In this document: piece after piece, positions 27,043-37,700 of the stretch
Numbering within the stretch: the stretch's first letter is position 1
Layout of the letters: each line of letters opens with the position of its first letter
Assembly (NCBI GenBank): GCA_038997165.1
Contig: JAWBAK010000001.1
Span: forward strand, 372,595 to 436,594
Length of the DNA stretch: 64,000 nucleotides
Direction of reading: 5' to 3'
Source: Candidatus Aenigmatarchaeota archaeon
Lineage (GTDB): Archaea > Aenigmatarchaeota > Aenigmatarchaeia > CG10238-14 > SpSt-28
Notes under the pieces: model-generated
What the model was told of the DNA's origin: nothing
Databases searched by the model: none
What the model saw: the letters and a program-made list of their open reading frames with translations, nothing else
Translations under genes and position numbers: made by a program

Positions 27043-28160
27043 CTAATGGCTTCAAAACAAATATTTTTTGATTTTGCATATTCATATGCTTTTTTAATTT
27101 CTTCATAATTTAGTTTTCTGGCAATTTCATCAAATTTTTCTGGAAATTTTAAAACTAAATATTCTGGATGATATTGATCCATAATGTTTACTAAAACATT
27201 TGGTATATTTTTTGAAATCCAATCCAAAACTTTATAGGTGCAACATTCTAAATGATTTGGTAAGACTAAATGTCTAACAATTATATTTTCTCCAAAATCG
27301 TAAATTATCTTATGATTTCTTGAGACAATTTCAAAGTAATTCTTTATTTTACTATATTTATATGCACATTTATTATTTCCATATTTAAAATCTGGTAACC
27401 AAATATCAATAACATCTAATAATAACTCTAGACTTTCTTTTGTCATATACATATTCGAATTCCAAAGCAACGCAATGTTTTCATTAAAATATTTTAAGCT
27501 TTCTAAGATTGTATGTAAATTTTGATCAGGATTACCACCTACAAAATTTATATTTATTGCTCCTTTATCATATAATTCTTTTTCTATTTCTGCAAGTTGT
27601 AAAGAATTTATTTCAAATCCATTTTTTGGATTTTGACTTATGTCCCAATTTTGACAATATACACATTTAAAACTACAGCCAGTAAAGAAAATTGTACCAG
27701 ATGGAATTAGTGGAGCTTCTTCTCCATAATGTAAAAAAGCAGATGCAACTCTAGCAATATTATCTAATCCACATTTTCCTTTTTTTCCTTCTAATCTTTT
27801 TGCTAAGCATAAATTTTCGCAAAATTTACAAGGAGATAGCATTTTATAAGCTAATTCTATTTTAACATCCAAAAAATTGTTTTTATTATTATTATTTTTA
27901 TCTATTTCCTTAATTTCGATATTTTTACCATTTTTTATTTTTTCAAATTTATCTAAAAATTCATTTCTTAATTCAGAATGAATTTTCCAAAGTTCTTTCT
28001 CTTCCAATTCTTTTAAATTTAAATTTTCTTTTAATTTTATGCTCTTTACAATTAAATATTTTGCTTTAACTTCATTTTTTAAAACTTTATAATACCAATT
28101 AAGTCTTTCTTTAACTTCTTTATTTTTCCAAATGTTTATTGCATCTAATCTAAAAATCAT
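27039..28160 (-). CDS. Radical SAM protein (PflX-like)
   Basis: GTIFFTGCSFKCVYCQN, DFKYGN, VRHLVLP; start placed at MIFRLDA. Confidence 0.9.
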   Translation of the reverse strand: MIFRLDAINIWKNKEVKERLNWYYKVLKNEVKAKYLIVKSIKLKENLNLKELEEKELWKIHSELRNEFLDKFEKIKNGKNIEIKEIDKNNNNKNNFLDVKIELAYKMLSPCKFCENLCLAKRLEGKKGKCGLDNIARVASAFLHYGEEAPLIPSGTIFFTGCSFKCVYCQNWDISQNPKNGFEINSLQLAEIEKELYDKGAININFVGGNPDQNLHTILESLKYFNENIALLWNSNMYMTKESLELLLDVIDIWLPDFKYGNNKCAYKYSKIKNYFEIVSRNHKIIYDFGENIIVRHLVLPNHLECCTYKVLDWISKNIPNVLVNIMDQYHPEYLVLKFPEKFDEIARKLNYEEIKKAYEYAKSKNICFEAIS

Positions 28161-28176
28161 AAAATTTAATATTTTT

Positions 28177-29307
28177 ATGAAATTTAGAGAAATTCCAAAA
28201 GAATTGATTAAAAATGTATATAAATGGAAAATTCTAATAGAAAATAAAAAAGATTTTGTTGGAAGTTCTCCTCCAAGCATTTTTATTTCTTCAGTTAATT
28301 ATCCAAATGTTAATTTGGGTGTTTTGTCTTTACCTATAATAGATGAAAGAAGTTATTATTTAGATTTTCCAGAATTATGGTATAAAGATAAATTAAGTTT
28401 TGAAAAGATAATTGAATTAAGAGCAAGTTTAATATATTCTTTTAAAAATGTTAATATAAAAAAACAATTTAGTTTATCAGAAAAAATTCAAGAATTGGCA
28501 TTAGCAAAAAATGTTGTAGATTTGGAAGTTAATTTAAAAAATTATCCTAAATTTAAATTTTTGTTTAATAAATATTTTGCTCCTATTGGAAATCCTGCAA
28601 AAATAGAAAATTTAAAAATTCAAAGCAATATAAAAATTGAAAATTTTGTTGAAAAAATTGTTAATGATGAAATTAAAGCTTCTGAGGCAACATTTTTATT
28701 ATATAAAAAAGGATTGGAAATATCTAGAATTCAAAAAATTTTTTCTGCTGGATTATTGGGTATCGAAAAGAAATTTGTTCCAACTAGATGGAGCATTACA
28801 GCTATAGATAGTATTATTAGCGAGAAATTAATCAAAAAAATTAGAGATTATAAAATCTTAGATAAATTTCAAATTTTTTATAATGAATATTTAGGAAACA
28901 AATTTTGGATTGTTCTATTACCATATGTTTTTGGTTTTGAAATGATAGAGTTTATTGGAAATAAATTTTATCAAGATTATGAAATATTTTTTGAGAGAAA
29001 AAAATATGCAGAAAGTGTTGCAGGTGGTTACTATGCAGCTCGATTAGCATGTTGCGAATATTTAGAAAGAATAAAAAGGCAAGCTGCTATAATTGTTTTT
29101 AGAAAAATAGAAGAGTTTTATACAATTCCTTTAGGTGTATGGAAAGTTAGAGAATGTATAAGAGATGCTCTTAACAAAAAACCTATTGAGTTAAATTCTT
29201 TAGAAGAATTGTTAAAATATTTAAGCAATACAAATTTAAATATAGAGTTAAGTAAGATTTTAAGAATTTATACTAAACAAAAAAGAGTAATTTATTTTAA
29301 TATTTAA
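28177..29307 (+). CDS. nreA: DNA repair protein Nre (NreA family)
   Basis: GSSPPSIF, VPTRWSITAID, GGYYAARL, PLGVWKVRE, C-terminal PIP-like KQKRVIYF. Confidence 0.9.
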   Translation: MKFREIPKELIKNVYKWKILIENKKDFVGSSPPSIFISSVNYPNVNLGVLSLPIIDERSYYLDFPELWYKDKLSFEKIIELRASLIYSFKNVNIKKQFSLSEKIQELALAKNVVDLEVNLKNYPKFKFLFNKYFAPIGNPAKIENLKIQSNIKIENFVEKIVNDEIKASEATFLLYKKGLEISRIQKIFSAGLLGIEKKFVPTRWSITAIDSIISEKLIKKIRDYKILDKFQIFYNEYLGNKFWIVLLPYVFGFEMIEFIGNKFYQDYEIFFERKKYAESVAGGYYAARLACCEYLERIKRQAAIIVFRKIEEFYTIPLGVWKVRECIRDALNKKPIELNSLEELLKYLSNTNLNIELSKILRIYTKQKRVIYFNI

Positions 29308-29327
29308 AAATATTTTAAAGGCAAATT

Positions 29328-29365
29328 ACAAAACAATTAAATGCATACCATTATGGAAATGGTTG
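29328..29365 (+). repeat. Orphan copy of the ATPase-gene 3' end; exact 38-bp direct repeat with 33455-33492
   Basis: ACAAAACAATTAAATGCATACCATTATGGAAATGGTTG occurs at both sites; near-copies end genes 1 and 2. Confidence 0.93.
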
Positions 29366-29407
29366 CTAGAAATTTAAAAGTTATTTTTTTCTGAAATTTT
29401 AATAAAC

Positions 29408-29425
29408 TTCCCTATATATAGGGAA
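29408..29425. promoter_or_regulatory. Perfect 18-bp palindrome, operator-like (half copy at about 29442)
   Basis: TTCCCTATATATAGGGAA just upstream of a TATA-like TTTATTTAAA and the ATG at 29456. Confidence 0.6.
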
Positions 29426-29455
29426 ATATTTATTTAAATCTTTCCCTATATATTT

Positions 29456-30742
29456 ATGGTAGGGGACTTAAAAAGATATTTTCTAAACAAAAAGGAAGAA
29501 ATAAAAAATTTGAAAGTTGAAAAAAGGTTAATACCTCATTCTTTTTCTATAGAGTTTATTTCTTGTATAATAGGTCCTAGAAGAGCTGGAAAAACTTATT
29601 TTTTATATGACTTAATTCTCAATAAATTACATTTGAAGGATTCCGATTATCTTTTTGTGAATTTTGAGGATTATGAAATCAAAGGAAGAAATAGAAAAGA
29701 AATTTTTAATATCATTCATTATCACAACGAAATATATGGAAAATATCCACAATATCTATTTTTTGATGAAATTCAAGCATTAGAAAATTGGCAGAGTTTT
29801 GTTTATTCACTCTATGAAAAGAAAAAGTATTTTATCTTTATTACCGGCTCTTCTTCAAAATTATCTAGTAGAGAAATTGCAACACAATTAAGGGGAAGAA
29901 CCTTTTCATTAAAAGTTCTTCCATTCAGCTTTAAGGAAATTTTATCTATTAAAAATTTTGAGTTAAACAAAAGTGTTTTTTCCTCTTACGAAGAGTCAGA
30001 AATTAAGCATATATTAAAAAATTATTTGGAGAAAGGCGGATTTCCGCAGCTATGGATAGAAAAAATTAATGAAAAAATATTTTTTGGAGATTATATAGAT
30101 GTTGTAGTTTTTAAAGATATAGTTGATAGATTTAAAATTAGGAACATAACAACAATAAAAATGTTAATTTCTTCTTGTATTTCATCTTTTTCAAAAGAGT
30201 TTTCAATCAAAAAAGTATATAATACTTTAAAGAGTATGGGAATTAAAATTAGTAAAAATTCTTTATATTCTTATTCTTCTATGTTAAGAGAAGTAATGTT
30301 TTGTTTTAACGTTTATAAATTTAGTTATTCTGAAAGGGAAATTTTGGGTTCAATTCCAAAGATATATATCTGCGATGTTGGTATTCCAAATTTTTATTTA
30401 TCCTCAAAAATAGATGAAAATATAGGCAGAATAATGGAAAATGTTGTTTTTTTGGAATTATATAGAAATGAAAATATTGATATTTTTTATTGGAAAGATT
30501 ATCAACAAAACGAAGTAGATTTTGTAATTAAAGAAGGATTAAATATTAAACAATTAATTCAAGTAACTTATGCATCTAATAAAGATGAAATTGAAAAAAG
30601 AGAAATAAAAGCATTAATTAAAGCAAGTGAATTGCTTAAATGCAAAGACTTATTAATAATTACTTGGGATTATGAAGATGAAATAAATTTTGAAAACAAA
30701 AAAATTAAATGCATTCCATTGTGGAAATGGTTGTTATTTTAG
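29456..30742 (+). CDS. AAA_14 + DUF4143-type ATPase, paralog 1
   Basis: GPRRAGKT, FFDEIQ, TGSSS, LRGR, GGFP, ENVV, EVDFV, IQV, PLWKWLL. Confidence 0.92.
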   Translation: MVGDLKRYFLNKKEEIKNLKVEKRLIPHSFSIEFISCIIGPRRAGKTYFLYDLILNKLHLKDSDYLFVNFEDYEIKGRNRKEIFNIIHYHNEIYGKYPQYLFFDEIQALENWQSFVYSLYEKKKYFIFITGSSSKLSSREIATQLRGRTFSLKVLPFSFKEILSIKNFELNKSVFSSYEESEIKHILKNYLEKGGFPQLWIEKINEKIFFGDYIDVVVFKDIVDRFKIRNITTIKMLISSCISSFSKEFSIKKVYNTLKSMGIKISKNSLYSYSSMLREVMFCFNVYKFSYSEREILGSIPKIYICDVGIPNFYLSSKIDENIGRIMENVVFLELYRNENIDIFYWKDYQQNEVDFVIKEGLNIKQLIQVTYASNKDEIEKREIKALIKASELLKCKDLLIITWDYEDEINFENKKIKCIPLWKWLLF

Positions 30743-30834
30743 CAATATAACTACAAGCCTTTTAAAATGTTCGTGATTATTAAAGTTTCATATTATGGGT
30801 AAACTTTTTAAATAATCTTTCCTAAATATATGAT

Positions 30835-32112
30835 ATGTTTGAGAAAGATTTTGTGCTTCAATATTTTGATAGAATTATTGAGAAAATTAAAGTCGAAAGA
30901 ATTTTTGAAAGAGAGTTAAAAGTAGATTTTCTTAAAAATAAGGCTATAGCAATAATTGGACCAAGAAGAGCTGGAAAAACTTATTTTTTACTTAATATTT
31001 TAAAAAATAATAAAAATGCTTTATACGTTGATTTAGAGCATTCTGCCTTCAAAGAAATTACACATAAAGAATTTTTTGAAATAATATCGATTTTTGAAGA
31101 ATATTTTAAAACTAGAGTTGAAAAAGTGATTATCGATGAAATACAAAATTTAAATAACTGGGAAAGTTTAGTTAGGAGTTTGCTTGATAGCGGATATTAT
31201 TTGATGATTTCAGGTTCTTCTTCAAAATTGTTAAGTAAAGAAGTTTCGACTCAATTAAGGGGAAGAAGCTTAAGTTATGTTTTATTGCCCTTAAGTTTTA
31301 GAGAGTATCTTAAATTTAAAAATATAGAAAGAAAAAAACTTATATCAATTTCTGAAAAAGTGAAGATAATTAAACTTTTAGAAGAGTTCCTAGAATGGGG
31401 TAGTTATCCAGAAATATTGGTTTATCCAGAAAAAAAGGAAAAAATTTTAAAAGAATACTTTGATACAATTTTTCAAAAAGATTTTATAGAAAGATTTGAA
31501 ATAGTTCATACTTATATTGCAAAATTACTCTTCGAATTTGTTATTCAAAACTTTTCAAAAGAAATAAGTTTAAACAAAATAGCTAATTTTATTTCTTCAA
31601 AAATAGGAAGAAATATTAAAAATATTGTTTATGATTATGCGGAAAAATTACCAGAAAGTTTAAGCGTATTTTTTGTAGAAAAACTTAGTAAAAGCATTTA
31701 TGAAAGAAAATCTTTAGGAAGAAAAATTTATGTTTGTGATTTGGGTTTAGTGTCGATGTTAAGCATGGAAAAAAATATAGGAAGAAGAATGGAAAACGCT
31801 GTTTTTCTTGAATTATTAAGAAACACTAATTTTAATCCCTTACAAGAAATCTATTATTTCAAAGATTATCAACAAAACGAAGTAGATTTTGTAATTAAAG
31901 AAGGATTAAATATTAAACAGTTAATTCAAGTAACTTATGCATCTAATAAAGATGAAATTGAAAAAAGAGAAATAAAAGCATTAATTAAAGCTTCAGAGCA
32001 ATTAAAATGCAAAGACTTATTAATAATTACTTGGGATTATGAAGATGAAATAAATTTTGAAAACAAAAAAATTAAATGCATACCATTATGGAAATGGTTA
32101 TTAAGAATTTAA
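30835..32112 (+). CDS. AAA_14 + DUF4143-type ATPase, paralog 2
   Basis: GPRRAGKT, IIDEIQ, SGSSS, GSYPE, ENAV, EVDFV. Confidence 0.92.
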   Translation: MFEKDFVLQYFDRIIEKIKVERIFERELKVDFLKNKAIAIIGPRRAGKTYFLLNILKNNKNALYVDLEHSAFKEITHKEFFEIISIFEEYFKTRVEKVIIDEIQNLNNWESLVRSLLDSGYYLMISGSSSKLLSKEVSTQLRGRSLSYVLLPLSFREYLKFKNIERKKLISISEKVKIIKLLEEFLEWGSYPEILVYPEKKEKILKEYFDTIFQKDFIERFEIVHTYIAKLLFEFVIQNFSKEISLNKIANFISSKIGRNIKNIVYDYAEKLPESLSVFFVEKLSKSIYERKSLGRKIYVCDLGLVSMLSMEKNIGRRMENAVFLELLRNTNFNPLQEIYYFKDYQQNEVDFVIKEGLNIKQLIQVTYASNKDEIEKREIKALIKASEQLKCKDLLIITWDYEDEINFENKKIKCIPLWKWLLRI

Positions 32113-32130
32113 AAGCTATATAATTTAGAA

Positions 32131-32180
32131 TATGTCACAAGTGACGTAAAATATTAATTTTTTATGTCATAAATGATATA
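32131..32180. promoter_or_regulatory. Pair of operator-like palindromes TATGTCA-N4-TGAYRTA (32131-32148 and 32163-32180)
   Basis: TATGTCACAAGTGACGTA and TATGTCATAAATGATATA, 32 bp apart, flanking an AT-rich TATA-like stretch. Confidence 0.6.
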
Positions 32181-33501
32181 TATGAAGAAAGAGGAAATAA
32201 TAAGTGTATTATCTTCGGTTAATTTTTGGGGAAGAGAAGATATAGATGTAGGAATAGAGAGAAAATTTTATAATTCTCAAATATTAAATTTTTTAAAAGG
32301 TGTTGAAAAAGTAATAACAATAACAGGAGTTAGAAGGAGTGGAAAGAGTTATATATTAAAGCAAATTGGAAAAAAGTTATCAGAAAAGTTTGGAAAAGAA
32401 AACGTTCTTTATGTTAATTTCGAAGAAGTTAAATTTTTTGAGGAGCTAAGCTTATCTTTTTTAATAAAAATATACGATGCTTTTAAAGAAATTGTGAGAC
32501 CAAAAACAAAACCTTTTTTAATTTTGGATGAAATTCAAGAGGTTCCAAAATGGGAAAAGTTTGTTAGAAGCTTGCATGAAAAAAAAGAAGCTTTTCTTAT
32601 AATTTCTGGCTCTTCTTCAAAGCTTTTTAGTGAAGAACTTGCTACTTTATTAGCTGGTAGAGAATTAGAAATAGAGGTATTTCCATTGGATTTTAAAGAG
32701 TTTCTCCAGTTTAAAAATTTTGAAATAGAAAAAGAAATAGATTTAATTATAAAAAAAGAAAAAATTATAAGATTTCTCAGAGAATTTTTAGAATTTGGTG
32801 GCTTTCCAGAGGTTGTTTTAGAAGAAAATGAAAACAAGAAAATTGGTATTATTAGAAAATATTTTGATACAATAGTATTAAAAGATGTTTTAAGAAGGTT
32901 TAAATTAAGAGAAAGTTATAAGTTAGAAGCGCTCTGTAATTATTACGTTTCAAACTTTTCAAACTTAATAACTTTTAATTCTGTTGCAAGATTTCTTAAA
33001 ATTTCTGAAAAGACTACTGAAAGATTTTCAAAGTATTTGCAAATTGCAAGAATTATATTTTTTGTTGAAAGATTTTCATATTCATTTAAATCAAGATATA
33101 AATCTGCTAGGAAAGTTTATGTTATAGATACTTCTTTTTCAAATTTATTAGGAATAAGGTTTTCAGAAAATATAGGTAGACTTATGGAAAATTTGGTTGC
33201 TATAGAACTATTAAGAAGATCGAAGAGAAGTTTAAAAGAAAATTTCTTTTATTTAAAAATTAATGATAGCGAGGTTGATTTTGTTATTAAAGAAGGCTTA
33301 AATATTAAGCAATTAATTCAAGTAACTTATGCATCAAATAAAGATGAAATTGAAAAAAGAGAAATAAAAGCATTATTAAAAGCAAGTGAATTATTAAAAT
33401 GCAAAGATTTATTAATAATTACTTGGGATTATGAGGATGAGATAAATTTTGAAAACAAAACAATTAAATGCATACCATTATGGAAATGGTTGTTAAGTTA
33501 A
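32173..33501 (+). CDS. AAA_14 + DUF4143-type ATPase, paralog 3
   Basis: GVRRSGKS, ILDEIQ, SGSSS, GGFPE, ENLV, EVDFV. Confidence 0.92.
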   Translation: MIYMKKEEIISVLSSVNFWGREDIDVGIERKFYNSQILNFLKGVEKVITITGVRRSGKSYILKQIGKKLSEKFGKENVLYVNFEEVKFFEELSLSFLIKIYDAFKEIVRPKTKPFLILDEIQEVPKWEKFVRSLHEKKEAFLIISGSSSKLFSEELATLLAGRELEIEVFPLDFKEFLQFKNFEIEKEIDLIIKKEKIIRFLREFLEFGGFPEVVLEENENKKIGIIRKYFDTIVLKDVLRRFKLRESYKLEALCNYYVSNFSNLITFNSVARFLKISEKTTERFSKYLQIARIIFFVERFSYSFKSRYKSARKVYVIDTSFSNLLGIRFSENIGRLMENLVAIELLRRSKRSLKENFFYLKINDSEVDFVIKEGLNIKQLIQVTYASNKDEIEKREIKALLKASELLKCKDLLIITWDYEDEINFENKTIKCIPLWKWLLS

Positions 33502-33505
33502 TTTT

Positions 33506-34264
33506 TTAAAATTTTTTTGAAAATATGTTTTGAAATATGTTTAAAAATTTTTTTAAAGTATTTTCTTTTTTTATTTCTATTCCAGCAATTTTTGAGATTA
33601 TAGAATTTATTTGATCTCTAAAATTTTTATCTAAGTTATATAGCATTTCTCTTCTTAAATCTGCATATTTTGCTTTTTTGCTTTCTTCAATTATTGATAA
33701 AATATTTGTATTAATTAAATTTTGAAAATCTTTTAGACTTAGCGGAGAATCTTTTTCGTATCTATTAATTATTATTCCTAAAACTTTTTTATTAAGTTTA
33801 TTTGCTAATTGAAAGCATTTTATTGAATCGAAAAGAGATGAAATTGTCGGGTTTGAAACAATAATTATTTCTTCGCTAAATTTTATAGCTGTTATAGCTT
33901 CTCTTCCAAATCCTGGTGCAGAATCTAATAAAACAAAATCAAAAAAGTTTAAATTTTCTTTTAATTTTTCTAAATTTTCTAATTTTAAGGAAGTTATTTC
34001 TTCTAAGTTTAAAGATGGAGAAATGTAGAAAAAGTTAAAAGTTGGATTTAATATTTCATAAAAGTCTGCTTCTTCGCTTAAGAATTCGTTTAAAGTAAAT
34101 TTTGGTTTTGAAGTTAAAAAAAGAGAAATGTGTGGAGTTGTAAAATTAAAATCTATTAATAAAGTTTTAAAACCAAAATTCGATAATGCATAAGATAAAT
34201 TTAAAGAAATTAATGTTTTTCCAACTCCTCCTTTTCCGCTTATTAATGAAATAATTCTTACCAT
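33506..34264 (-). CDS. minD: MinD/ParA-family ATPase
   Basis: SGKGGVGKT, LIDFN, LDSAPG, IIINR. Confidence 0.85.
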   Translation of the reverse strand: MVRIISLISGKGGVGKTLISLNLSYALSNFGFKTLLIDFNFTTPHISLFLTSKPKFTLNEFLSEEADFYEILNPTFNFFYISPSLNLEEITSLKLENLEKLKENLNFFDFVLLDSAPGFGREAITAIKFSEEIIIVSNPTISSLFDSIKCFQLANKLNKKVLGIIINRYEKDSPLSLKDFQNLINTNILSIIEESKKAKYADLRREMLYNLDKNFRDQINSIISKIAGIEIKKENTLKKFLNIFQNIFSKKF

Positions 34265-34545
34265 TTCTCTAATAGTCTAAAATATTTTTTCTTATTTTTT
34301 CTATAGAAAGTTATTTTTCCCTCTCTAAACAATTCGCTTAAATATTCGGAGGCTCTTTGAATCGATAAATTAAGTGCTTTTGCAACATCTTGTAAAGTTA
34401 GCTCCTTATTTTTTTGAAATAGTTCTATAATAAATTCTTTATTTTTTTCTTTTCTAGTTTTTTTAATTTCATAACTTCTTTCTTCTTTTTTTAATAAAGT
34501 TTGAATAAAAATTAGTTTATTATCTATTTCTTTTCTTTCTTCCAT
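34258..34545 (-). CDS. Small winged-HTH DNA-binding protein
   Basis: LTLQDVAKALNLSIQRASEYLSELFREGKI. Confidence 0.8.
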   Translation of the reverse strand: MEERKEIDNKLIFIQTLLKKEERSYEIKKTRKEKNKEFIIELFQKNKELTLQDVAKALNLSIQRASEYLSELFREGKITFYRKNKKKYFRLLEKW

Positions 34546-34719
34546 AAAAATACTTTTATTTTAAATTTATTTTTTCGATTTTCGAAGTTTATATAATTTT
34601 CGAAATTATTTTATTTGTTTTTGTTTTTTCTTAGTTTTTTAAATGAAATTATAGTGTTATTTATACTTGTTAACAATAATTGTTAAATCTATATATTAAT
34701 CGAAAATTGTAATATTAAA

Positions 34720-37700
34720 ATGAAAAGTTTAATTAATAAATTATTTTTTGTAGTTTTTTTAATTTTATTTATTTCTATTTCTTCAGATGTTATAATTGAA
34801 ATACCTCCTTTTTCTAATAGAAGTGTTCAGGCAAACGTTAGTTCTCAGCTATTTAATTTTACTATTAATAATACTGAAGAAAATTCTATAATTCAAGTTA
34901 ACATAACTTTACCTAATGGCTTTAATTATGTTTCGGATTCTGCAAATACTAATGCTTTGTTTGAAAGTTTTGAAGTTTATGAAAATACTTTAAGCTGGTA
35001 TAATTCTTCTGGATTAATTCTTGCTTTTGAAAATAGAAGTTTTTGGTTTAATAGTAGCGTTTCTGATATAGGAATTTATAATTTTACAATTAGTTTACTT
35101 TATTCTAACGGAAGCATTGAAATTAGGGAAGAAAGTGTTTATGTAAGAAAAGTTTTTGTTGAAGTAGATTTGGATAAATATCTTATTAATATTGGAGAAA
35201 ATATTACTATTTTTGGTAAATTGTATGATGAAAATAAAAATCCAATAGAAGGTGCTGAAATATATTTTTGGATTGATGAAATTTTTATCGGAAATAGTAT
35301 TACTTCTTTTAATGGTGATTTTTCTTATGTATTTAATTCCTCTATTTTAAATTTATTAAATAATAGATATGAAATAAAAGTTAATGGAACATATAATTAC
35401 TTTTATTTTGAAAATTTTACATATTTCAATACATCTACTAACATTACTATTCCTGGATATTATATTTTGGGTAACGATATAATTAATTCTTTATCTTTAG
35501 TAGGAATAAATATATCTGCTCCTAATGTTATATTGGATTGTAATGGAAAAAGAATTGATGGAAATTTTAGTGTTAATGATATTTCATCTAAAAATTTATA
35601 TGGAATTTTTGTTGATAACTTTAATGTTACTATAAGAAACTGTATAATTTCTAGATGGCAAACGGGAATATTTTTATCTTCTAGAGCTAATAATTGTATA
35701 ATCGAAAATAATACTATAAATAATATTTTTGGATCATCTAATGGTGGAAACGCTATTGGTATTATGATTTTATCTAATGGAAATATAATTACAAATAATT
35801 CAATATTTAATTTAACAGGAGGAACAGGAGGAACAGGTGGATATCAAGGTTCAGGTGGTTCAGGCGGCATTTCAACAGGAGTATATCTTTTAAATTCTTT
35901 CAACAATACATTTTTTTCAAACTCAATATTTAATTTAACAGGAGGAACAGGAGGAACAGGTGGATATGAAGGTTCAGGTGGTTCAGGCGGCATTTCAACA
36001 GGAATATATCTTTTAAATTCTTTCAATAATACATTTTATTCAAACTCAATATTTAATTTAACAGGAGGAACAGGAGGAACACGTGGAACAGGTGGATTCT
36101 ATGGTTCAGGTGGTTCAGGCGGTATTTCAACAGGAATATGGATAGGAGATTCAATATCATTAAACAACGAAATAACTCCAACTATTGATAATAATGTTGA
36201 TATATCAAAACTTAATTATTTTAATANNNNNNNNNNNNNNNNNNNNNNNNNNNNNNNNNNNNNNNNNNNNNNNNNNNNNNNNNNNNNNNNNNNNNNNNNN
36301 NNNNNNNNNNNNNNNNNNNNNNAGGTGGATATCGAGGTTCAGGTGGTTCAGGCGGCATTTCAACAGGAATATATCTTTTAAATTCTTTCAACAATACATT
36401 TTTTTCAAACTCAATATTTAATTTAACAGGAGGAACAGGAGGAACAGGTGGATACTATGGTTCAGGTGGTTCAGGCGGTATTTCAACAGGAATATATCTT
36501 TTAAATTCTTTCAACAATACATTTTTTTCAAACTCAATATTTAATTTAACAGGTGGAACAGGAGGAACACGTGGAACAGGTGGATTCTATGGTTCAGGCG
36601 GCATTTCAACAGGAATATATCTTTTAAATTCTTTCAATAATACATTTTTTTCAAACTCAATATTTATCTCTAATTTTTCTTTTTCAATCTACAATTCTTC
36701 AAATAATTTAATATATAATAATCTTTTAAGGAGTAGAAATATAGTACAATTTATTTCTCCAATTTTCCGAAACTTTTGGAATATAAGCAAAACCCTAATT
36801 GAAAATAAAAATATCGTAGAAGGAGACTATTTGGGTGGTAATGCTTATTTGGGTTTAATTGAAAATTATTCTTCTACCTGTATTGATGAGGATGAAGATT
36901 ATATTTGCGATTATCCATACGATTTAATAAATAGAAGATTTTGTGTAATTGGGGTTAATTGTTCGAATAATACGGATTTTCTTCCACTAAGGCCTAGAAT
37001 AGCTATTATAACCTATGAAGAAAATTTCCCAACTCTAAAGTATTTTTTAAATAAGAACACAACTCATATAATAAGATTTTCTGTAGAAAGTGTTATTGAA
37101 GATATTTTAAAAGTAGAAGTAAATTTACCTAATGAATTTGTTTTTATATCAGAATCTAATAGAACCTCAGCTGCTAATTCTATATTTTATAATATTTCTA
37201 ATAAACTGATATGGGAAAATAGTACACAATTACCATTAGTTCCTATAGGAAGGAAAGAGAGTTTTGAGTTTAGTATTATAACTCCATCTATTTTAGGAGA
37301 ATATTCTTTACTAATTACTGTATATTCTTCACAAGGATCATATATTAATCTATCTGTTCCTTTATATGTTAAAACAATTGCAATAAATTTCTCTATTGAC
37401 AAATATGTTTCTAATATTAACGATACAATAAAAATTTTTGGAAATCTTTTGTTATTACCAGATAATATACCTATAAATAATACAAAAGTTGTAATAAGTA
37501 TAGATGAGGAAATTATAAGTGATACATGTTTTTCAGATGAAAGTGGTATATTTGATTGCTATATAGAAATTTTTGATAAACCATTAGGTATACATAAAAT
37601 AAAAATAAATACAACAAACTATCAAGGAATTTATGGAGAAAACGAAACTTTTATAGAAATTAGAAATTTAACATTCTTTGATTTAGCTTTACTTGATTCT

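Follow-up and report, generated by a model that had tools for sequence, protein, structure and literature searches.

A three-gene array in the genome of Candidatus Aenigmatarchaeota archaeon raises the question of how tandem paralogs that have diverged over most of their length can keep a common 3' end. The array lies in the window analyzed here, by which we mean the whole 64,000-nucleotide stretch (G000:C1:372595-436594; positions below are those of the window) taken from a 652-kb genome, G000, that comprises 4 contigs, is 94.5% complete and has a base composition of 24% G+C. The genes, g1 to g3, each encode an AAA_14 ATPase with a winged helix-turn-helix (wHTH) and a DUF4143 domain, and we divided each of them at an EVDF motif into a body of ~350 codons and a tail of ~76 codons. 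Our results make it likely that homologous recombination within the tails drives a cassette-like turnover of these genes, which are of the PDC-S01 type of candidate defense genes, and that an integron is not the mechanism behind it.

Over the first ~350 codons, the three genes are ~50% identical at the DNA level (35-80% per 25-codon bin, mostly 45-60%), whereas the final ~76 codons are 91-94% identical, with 87-99% in the last three bins. An earlier reading of the locus from its letters, hereafter the sequence-only reading, had recognized the divergent bodies and the common 3' end, and its count of differences between the g1 and g2 tails (14 of ~243 nucleotides [nt], 10 of them in one patch) was essentially right: the ungapped counts are 16 differences in 247 nt for these tails, with 10 inside 30625-30637, 17 in 226 nt for those of g1 and g3 and 21 in 226 nt for those of g2 and g3. 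Its assignment of the flanking genes to nreA and minD agrees with Pfam matches to Nre_N plus Nre_C and to ParA, and the orphan copy of the g3 end that it reported upstream of g1 is indeed exact over 38 bp. This orphan starts 20 nt past the nreA stop, positions 29328-29365 repeating 33455-33492, and weaker similarity continues as far as 29395. A 30-nt tail core had no chance match in 200 shuffles, a control run on the second locus of this genome.

That units come and go at this site is seen by comparison with relatives. Our panel of 61 genomes, with G000 among them, came from a single order and included G005 and G001, which are congeneric with G000. These three congeners share synteny at the nreA-[array]-minD-wHTH site, where the gene number is 3 for G000, 9 for G005 and 0 for G001. 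At the empty G001 site, of the kind that the sequence-only reading had proposed to look for, the nreA flank is followed by one decayed tail remnant of ~40 nt and then by the sequence found downstream of the g3 stop in G000, a layout that one would expect after crossing-over of the 38-nt orphan with the tail of g3. Between G000 and G005, all five junctions, second locus included, lie inside tails, and the last codons and the downstream spacer go with the downstream unit. Thus, the ortholog of g1 is G005a.3 (body 91.5% identical in nt), but the end of g1 and the spacer after it match G005a.4 instead. The ortholog of g2 is G005a.5, with identities of 97.9% for the body and only 84.8% for the tail, and the best match of the g2 tail is G005a.7 (94.4%), the gene preceding the g3 ortholog. 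That ortholog, G005a.8, shares 97.9% of the body and 86.8% of the tail with g3, whose end and downstream spacer match G005a.9, the final gene before minD. The orphan end and its spacer match G005a.2, located upstream of the g1 ortholog, and the end of the second-array gene matches that of b.3 in G005. The suggestion that recombination in the 3' segment adds, removes or relocates units is thereby borne out. It fared differently with the idea that the orphan belongs to a repeat-unit-repeat layout: no piece of a tail separates nreA from the first array gene of G005, so the orphan of G000 is a deletion scar left by an upstream gene that was lost, and we rejected the candidate role of a constitutive array-start site on the same ground.

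A second pair of genomes, G012 and G014, whose flanks are 97.6% identical, differs in the order of its units (given by body type), which reads scar-9-7-3-2b-4-8 in G012 versus scar-3-9-7... and ...2b-4-8-2a in G014. The block shared around unit 3 begins in the 3' half of the upstream tail. Orthologs that have kept the same downstream neighbor (2 pairs) have tails 96.6-99.6% identical, whereas those with a different downstream neighbor (2 pairs) have tails 83-89% identical and bodies at least 99.1% identical.

The separate histories of bodies and tails extend across the order. We retrieved 20 regions containing 69 family pieces, of which 52 are full-length and were kept; the other 17, partial or broken, were excluded from later analyses. 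The 52 bodies fall into 21 types at no less than 60% amino acid (aa) identity. Genes of the same genome and different type (193 pairs) share on average 53% of body and 84% of tail nt, and genes of different genomes and the same type (53 pairs) share 83% and 81%, respectively. The nearest relative could be scored for 50 genes, the other 2 coming from single-gene genomes: the nearest body lies in another genome in 50 of 50 cases, and the nearest tail in the same genome in 32 of 50. On a maximum-likelihood tree of the tails, the genome label requires 16 changes (500 shuffles: minimum 26, mean 31.6) and the body-type label 36 (mean 37.9), and on the tree of the bodies the genome label requires 36 (mean 31.5); the body-type label on the body tree is circular and hence was unused. 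The comparison of N- and C-terminal trees that the sequence-only reading had recommended therefore yields incongruent trees. There is concerted evolution or recombination among the paralogs, and its strength differs by genome.

Among the 10 closest ortholog pairs, the synonymous divergence dS of the bodies is 0.005-0.12 and that of the tails is 0.48-1.6 in 8 pairs, the 2 exceptions being the G012/G014 pairs with an unchanged downstream neighbor. Within the tail, the 5' third tracks its own body (identity by thirds, e.g., 0.93/0.88/0.81 and 0.95/0.85/0.82) and the 3' third tracks the downstream unit (e.g., 0.89/0.91/0.96 and 0.80/0.84/0.95), a gradient which indicates that crossovers are spread along the tail and do not occur at one site. 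A clustering of crossovers at the body/tail boundary had been considered and was dropped after this analysis by thirds.

Sequence comparisons indicate that bodies also spread horizontally between genomes, across genera too. Between G000 and G005, DNA identity is 84% in a 5.3-kb block left of the array, 90-96% in the array units and 94% on the minD side. G000 and G009 belong to different genera, and their units are 84-90% identical versus 65-68% for housekeeping DNA; between genera overall, bodies are 84-94% identical in nt, while housekeeping DNA is 65-76% identical or cannot be aligned. Bodies of G009 and G012 reach 97-98% identity, a figure for bodies alone. The 2-kb flank of a G009 array has no match at E <= 1e-30 in G000, G005, G012 or G014.

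The search of genome and relatives for the tail segment, also recommended by the sequence-only reading, further revealed that G000 carries a second array ~100 kb away (C1:503.8-506.3 kb), with one intact and one frameshifted gene that both bear the same tail. At E <= 1e-20, the 232-nt tail is found in 21 of the 61 genomes, G000 counted; at E <= 1e-3, the number is 32 of 61, with many short AT-rich matches. Arrays contain up to 9 genes (G005), 7 and 5-6 (two in G009) or 6 (G012), and G009 has up to about 15 such genes, roughly 2.5% of its genome. In a phylum-wide sample of 81 genomes, 43 carry DUF4143 genes. When the tail was compared with 1.84 billion cluster representatives, 1680 matches reached E <= 1e-3, of which 329 were at <= 1e-10 and 4 at <= 1e-30, and many were fragments; because these representatives are clustered at 50% identity, the search is useless for counting body types. 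Rfam has nothing at E <= 0.1 within 28000-35000, and NCBIfam has no family for any of four genes (g1-g3 and the intact second-array gene).

Could the tails be alike only through very strong purifying selection in an AT-rich genome, with no recombination at all? Codon usage points in this direction, since 76 identical codons drawn from the codon usage of G000 give 86% DNA identity (range 82-90%); in addition, the tail motif QLIQVT...ITWDYE...PLWKWLL is kept class-wide, and the tails of G009 and G053 are at synonymous saturation. In G000, however, 25-38% of the synonymous sites of the tails differ where saturation predicts 64% (45-81%), so that the proportion pS, 0.25-0.38, stays under the 2.5% bound of this null, 0.45. 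The description of the tails as nearly identical thus holds for their DNA identity and overstates how recent that identity is. The dN/dS of the G000 tails, about 0.1 from small counts (5.5-10.8 nonsynonymous and 10-15 synonymous differences per pair), is like that of orthologous bodies (omega), yet the nonsynonymous proportion pN between paralogs is far lower in tails (0.03-0.06) than in bodies (0.27-0.46), which argues for tails that are younger and not simply under more constraint. Median within-genome tail pS spans a wide range, from 0.05 in G051, 0.18 in G028, 0.33 in G000 and 0.40 in G005 to 0.45 in G014, 0.53 in G012, 0.60 in G009 and 0.66 in G053, compared with 0.63 between genomes. Across the class, 3' identity is raised in tandem pairs of G074, G083 and G028 (67-93% per 40-codon bin), mostly as protein conservation predicts, so homogenization at the DNA level cannot be claimed beyond the order. 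Selection alone also leaves unexplained the orthologs with bodies 97-99.5% and tails 79-89% identical, the tail ends that go with the downstream neighbor, the clustering of tails by genome and the empty G001 site, and we regard it as an extremely unlikely explanation. That short-read assemblers collapsed or misjoined the repeats, creating apparent array differences and mosaic tails, is improbable. Contigs do end in arrays in G005, G009, G014 and G001, public unitigs break at each tail and many of the database tail matches are fragments; on the other side, 11 genomes that were assembled independently show the basic architecture with reading frames intact, the G001 remnant has substitutions of its own and so is not a collapsed copy, the same pairs of tail end and spacer are found in G000 and G005, and paralogs in G051, G028 and G053 carry common, genome-specific tail substitutions.

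The integron analogy had been offered as a mechanism by the sequence-only reading and corresponds to a site-specific system in which the end of the tail would function as attachment site and circular cassettes would be excised and inserted by an unrecognized recombinase. The units do act as cassettes, the different array positions of the type 3 unit in G014 and G012 could be explained by excision and reinsertion of a circle, and a small hairpin, CCATT..AATGG, lies within the 3' end of the tail, which as single-stranded DNA folds slightly better than shuffles (z score, -2.05; 7 of 200 shuffles equally good). We found no attC-like fold, however, and detected in the 94.5%-complete genome no tyrosine recombinase (PF00589), not even of XerA type, no serine recombinase (PF00239) and no TnpB (PF07282), in searches that were positive in 14, 12 and 8 of 14 control genomes, respectively. 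Linkage falls off gradually over the tail and not at one point, the G005 array starts without an orphan, every unit carries its own upstream spacer and, although contigs are a weak test, no joint in the contigs of four metagenome runs supports a circle. We therefore hold a site-specific system to be very improbable. A recombinogenic constant segment beside a variable remainder also resembles the donor arrays of pilin or vls type, which would make the array a device of programmed variation within one lineage, with one expressed gene and silent donors that switch by conversion as in antigenic variation. Given that g1-g3 and 52 of the 69 family pieces are full-length, with their own start and a conserved upstream spacer, and that the variable part is an entire ATPase body and no surface epitope, this is barely credible; switching within a sample was not seen either, but contigs cannot show it.

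The model that we favor, turnover by homologous recombination, can be set out as follows. The conserved tail protein, together with the 24% G+C composition, would keep tails about 80-95% identical in DNA among all paralogs. As the tails are alike and the bodies too diverged to recombine, the tail is the sole available substrate of homologous recombination. Recombination between tails, which may depend on RadA (a RadA/Rad51 gene is present in G000, E 6.5e-93), would by crossover or conversion delete, duplicate, relocate or replace whole units, a unit running from the 3' portion of one tail through the spacer, with its putative promoter, and the body after it to the 5' portion of the tail of that body. 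Partial homogenization of tails would also occur in some lineages, and bodies would pass between genomes and also between genera. The arrays could then constitute a repertoire of sensors of different specificities with a common C-terminal module and an antiviral or anti-mobile-DNA role.

Several observations weigh against this model. The left end of the deletion that formed the orphan lies outside any tail, as does the junction of the 2a unit difference between G012 and G014. Homogenization is partial, since pS in G009 and G053 (0.60-0.66) is like that between genomes, and the tail similarity in these two genomes can be explained by protein conservation and codon bias alone. The bodies are under purifying and not diversifying selection (omega 0.05-0.14), and the earlier picture of variable sensor modules accordingly has to give way to one of old, conserved types that are not rapidly diversifying. 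Viral contigs contain no exact match to a 23-nt tail pattern and no relative detectable by protein alignment. Finally, all compared genomes are metagenome-type assemblies with many arrays at contig ends, and exact runs between tails reach ~77 nt, so that an assembler could misjoin units and some orders or chimeric tails could be artefactual.

Public metagenome data cover the stretch in part: 20 hot-spring runs contain some of it, with no RNA run listed among them. We examined 4 runs as Logan contigs only, the unitigs breaking at every tail. Run X1 yields pieces 29336-30535, 30685-31875 and 32052-33366, none of which bridges a tail, and the sides of the listed joints measure 21-34 nt. Summed depth is higher over the tails, depth not being equal to copy number. 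A joint from 32402 to 30056, with 7 letters between, is present in runs X1-X3 (summed depth, 959 in X1) and probably stems from an abundant paralog or another organism.

The features of the array and its surroundings are collected in Table 1.

Table 1. Features of the array site, in window coordinates
Feature	Position	Strand	Evidence
nreA, left anchor of the array site	28132..29307	+	Pfam Nre_N E 3.7e-74, Nre_C E 1.5e-29; syntenic in G001, G005
Orphan tail remnant (ending in NKTIKCIPLWKWLLEI and stop) plus following spacer	29328..29395	+	38 nt exact with g3 end
Spacer 5' of g1, with palindrome TTCCCTATATATAGGGAA and second TTCCCTATATAT	29396..29455	+	Sequence reading
g1, body type 10, AAA_14 ATPase + wHTH + DUF4143, 428 aa	29456..30742	+	Open reading frame (ORF), Pfam, PADLOC
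Shared tail of g1 (EVDF... to stop)	30512..30742	+	Repeat family D1, binned identity
g2, body type 1, 425 aa	30835..32112	+	ORF, Pfam, PADLOC
Shared tail of g2	31879..32112	+	Repeat search, binned identity
g3, body type 5, 442 aa	32173..33501	+	ORF, Pfam, PADLOC, AlphaFold2 model
Shared tail of g3	33271..33501	+	Repeat search, structure model
MinD/ParA-type ATPase, right anchor, convergent with the array	33506..34264	-	Pfam ParA, CbiA
Small wHTH protein overlapping minD	34258..34545	-	Pfam HTH_24

The spacer upstream of g1 contains, within 29409-29455, the perfect palindrome TTCCCTATATATAGGGAA and the element TTCCCTATATAT, and the palindrome also stands 5' of the g1 ortholog in G005. The spacer moves together with the g1 body and probably serves as a promoter or operator, and TTCCCTATATATAGGGAA itself is possibly a TATA-box or operator element specific to the g1 unit. 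In the G005 array, G005a.3 and G005a.6 are followed by the same stretch of 45 nt, so the units that follow (types 12 and 19) have a common upstream spacer despite different bodies.

On the right side of the site, the aa identity between G000 and G005 is 98.4% for MinD and 97.9% for the small wHTH protein, versus 79% for NreA. The minD of G001 is a 140-aa C-terminal piece without P-loop and has no adjoining wHTH gene; the second array of G000 is without a minD/wHTH pair. The minD/ParA and wHTH pair may travel or work with the array. The second array is flanked (L009 5322-5603 and 8664-8960) by a 93-aa fragment of a PD-(D/E)XK protein (PDDEXK_1) and by a protein of 98 aa that weakly matches the SWIM zinc finger, both syntenic in G005. 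In G028 (locus L073, contig C32), two family genes ~3 kb apart are 100% identical in DNA except over the last ~40 codons (85%), which suggests that the duplication is very recent and that the two tails have nonetheless already become different. Beyond the wHTH gene, the window encodes at 34720-36381 a putative secreted beta-helix protein carrying motifs that resemble N-glycosylation sites, in an ORF broken by a run of N and containing tandem 123-nt repeats (family D7, 98% identical) that encode GGTGGTGG...GSGGSGG.

At the protein level, g1-g3 match AAA_14 (PF13173) with E values of 2e-33 to 4e-35 (115-121 bits versus a curated cutoff of 27), followed by DUF4143 (PF13635) with 2e-14 to 6e-23 (54-82 bits versus 28.1), an order that places them in the COG1373-type architecture. 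The PADLOC model of PDC-S01, PDLC04787, covers g1-g3 and the intact second-array gene at its positions ~9-408 of 412 (E 1.1e-86 to 1.6e-112; over the full length, the E values for PDC-S01 are 1e-87 to 2e-113), which is in line with the earlier suggestion of a defense system and makes the array genes candidates for an antiviral role by family membership. According to PMC12988326, PDC-S01 is an ATPase fused to a PD-(D/E)xK-superfamily domain, is abundant and enriched in Archaea and ranks fourth in frequency among the defense candidates in prokaryotes; the same text states that experimental validation of most PDCs is pending and that DPANN are enriched in single-gene candidates. PDCs are defined by their embedding in known systems in Payne et al. 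(10.1101/2024.01.29.577857), and DUF4143/COG1373 is listed as a PD-(D/E)XK family of unknown function in PMC3424549.

An alignment of 49 sequences, from which 3 of the 52 genes were omitted as ORFs without an initial methionine, shows that G52, G57, K58, D119 and E120 of the Walker A (GxxxxGK[ST]) and Walker B (hhhhDE) motifs are invariant. The AlphaFold2 model of g3 has a mean pLDDT (predicted local distance difference test) of 89.7 and a pTM (predicted template modeling score) of 0.90. In Foldseek searches, the best matches of its ATPase and winged-helix part are archaeal Orc1/Cdc6 and the archaeal ATPases SSO1545 (2fna) and PABY2304 (2qen), with E values of 1.6e-8 to 1.7e-7, and further matches include the STAND (signal transduction ATPases with numerous domains) proteins Apaf-1, CED-4, plant nucleotide-binding leucine-rich repeat proteins (NLRs) and Avs; a search of the PDB by sequence gave no match to solved structures beyond the P-loop level. 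In the modeled C-terminal domain, the structural elements follow the alpha-beta-beta-beta-alpha-beta order seen in PD-(D/E)xK nucleases, and the tail is predicted to form the second half of this fold (strands 366-374 and 377-384, helix 395-408, strand 413-417, a C-terminal hairpin and the PLWKWLL helix). The tail thus starts at the D-bearing strand, inside the PD-(D/E)xK-like domain, the first half of which is held by the body. E339 and D369 are invariant in the 49 sequences, and the third motif is Q383-V-T385 (QVT or QVC across the clade), where canonical DUF4143 relatives from the same phylum have EVK. Of the earlier proposal of a constant nuclease-like tail, the fold is therefore retained and the canonical ExK motif is absent, so that by its motifs the domain would not count as an active PD-(D/E)xK nuclease. 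A homodimer prediction for g3 scored 0.00 in a run without controls and has no bearing on tail-mediated assembly.

The arrays share parts of their organization with several known systems. As in integron cassette arrays, a fixed chromosomal site, in empty and filled states, holds a variable number of units with a repeated element between them; unlike in integrons, there is no IntI-type integrase, the repeat is a coding part of each gene and lacks the properties of an attC site, junctions extend over ~230 nt, every unit has its own upstream spacer and the units all belong, as paralogs, to a single family. Resistance clusters of plant NLRs, which are STAND ATPases, evolve by unequal crossing-over, gene conversion and birth and death. 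They have in common with our arrays tandem STAND/AAA+-like putative immune ATPases, variable copy number and sequence exchange between paralogs, whereas the arrays described here are prokaryotic and much more compact, limit exchange to a short C-terminal segment and have bodies that are conserved types common across genera, not rapidly diversifying repeats. Polymorphic toxin loci (cdiA-CT/cdiI of contact-dependent inhibition [CDI], Rhs, Neisseria Maf) consist of a constant N-terminal part, a variable C-terminal toxin and an immunity gene. There, too, a constant coding segment provides the homology for module swaps and truncated orphan copies lie beside the array, but in our case constancy lies at the C terminus and variation in the ATPase/wHTH body, and there is no immunity gene. 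Orc1/Cdc6, SSO1545 (2fna) and PABY2304 (2qen) have no PD-(D/E)xK-like C-terminal domain and are 13-15% identical to g3.

Another close system is PDC-S01 (COG1373) itself, a single-gene phage-defense candidate of PADLOC, with which the array genes share the full-length hidden Markov model match and the ATPase fused to a PD-(D/E)xK-superfamily domain. The array clade has QVT or QVC instead of the EVK that is canonical in DUF4143, and PDC-S01 is treated as a single gene in the literature, to the extent of the text accessible to us, whereas here we find arrays of 2-9 paralogs with a recombining tail. The words tandem, paralog and gene conversion are absent from the accessible text of PMC12988326, and no description of arrays with a recombining common tail was found in the main-text literature that our searches covered. 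The ingredients, namely concerted evolution, unequal crossing-over in immune clusters and orphan modules, are known; their combination is new as far as our searches go.

The arrays amount to a natural domain-swap experiment on PDC-S01, and its outcome suggests that specificity resides in the ~350-residue ATPase/wHTH body, of which many old, conserved and horizontally spread types exist. The C-terminal 76 residues seem to form a common module from which the canonical nuclease motif has disappeared. The arrays also represent a case of cassette-like turnover at a fixed site in genomes of ~0.6-0.8 Mb without a detectable site-specific recombinase. It is possible, and we put this forward only tentatively, that the tail is a built-in, integrase-free capture device: as all members of the array clade end in the same ~230 nt, any DNA fragment that arrives with a foreign body between two tails could enter a resident array by homologous recombination. 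On this view, the tail sequence would be kept partly for evolvability, alongside its function as protein, in a pan-immune pool across genera; the tail protein may then be a common effector or an assembly module linking the paralogs. If this were true, genome-reduced archaea without site-specific recombinases could pool specificity modules across genera.

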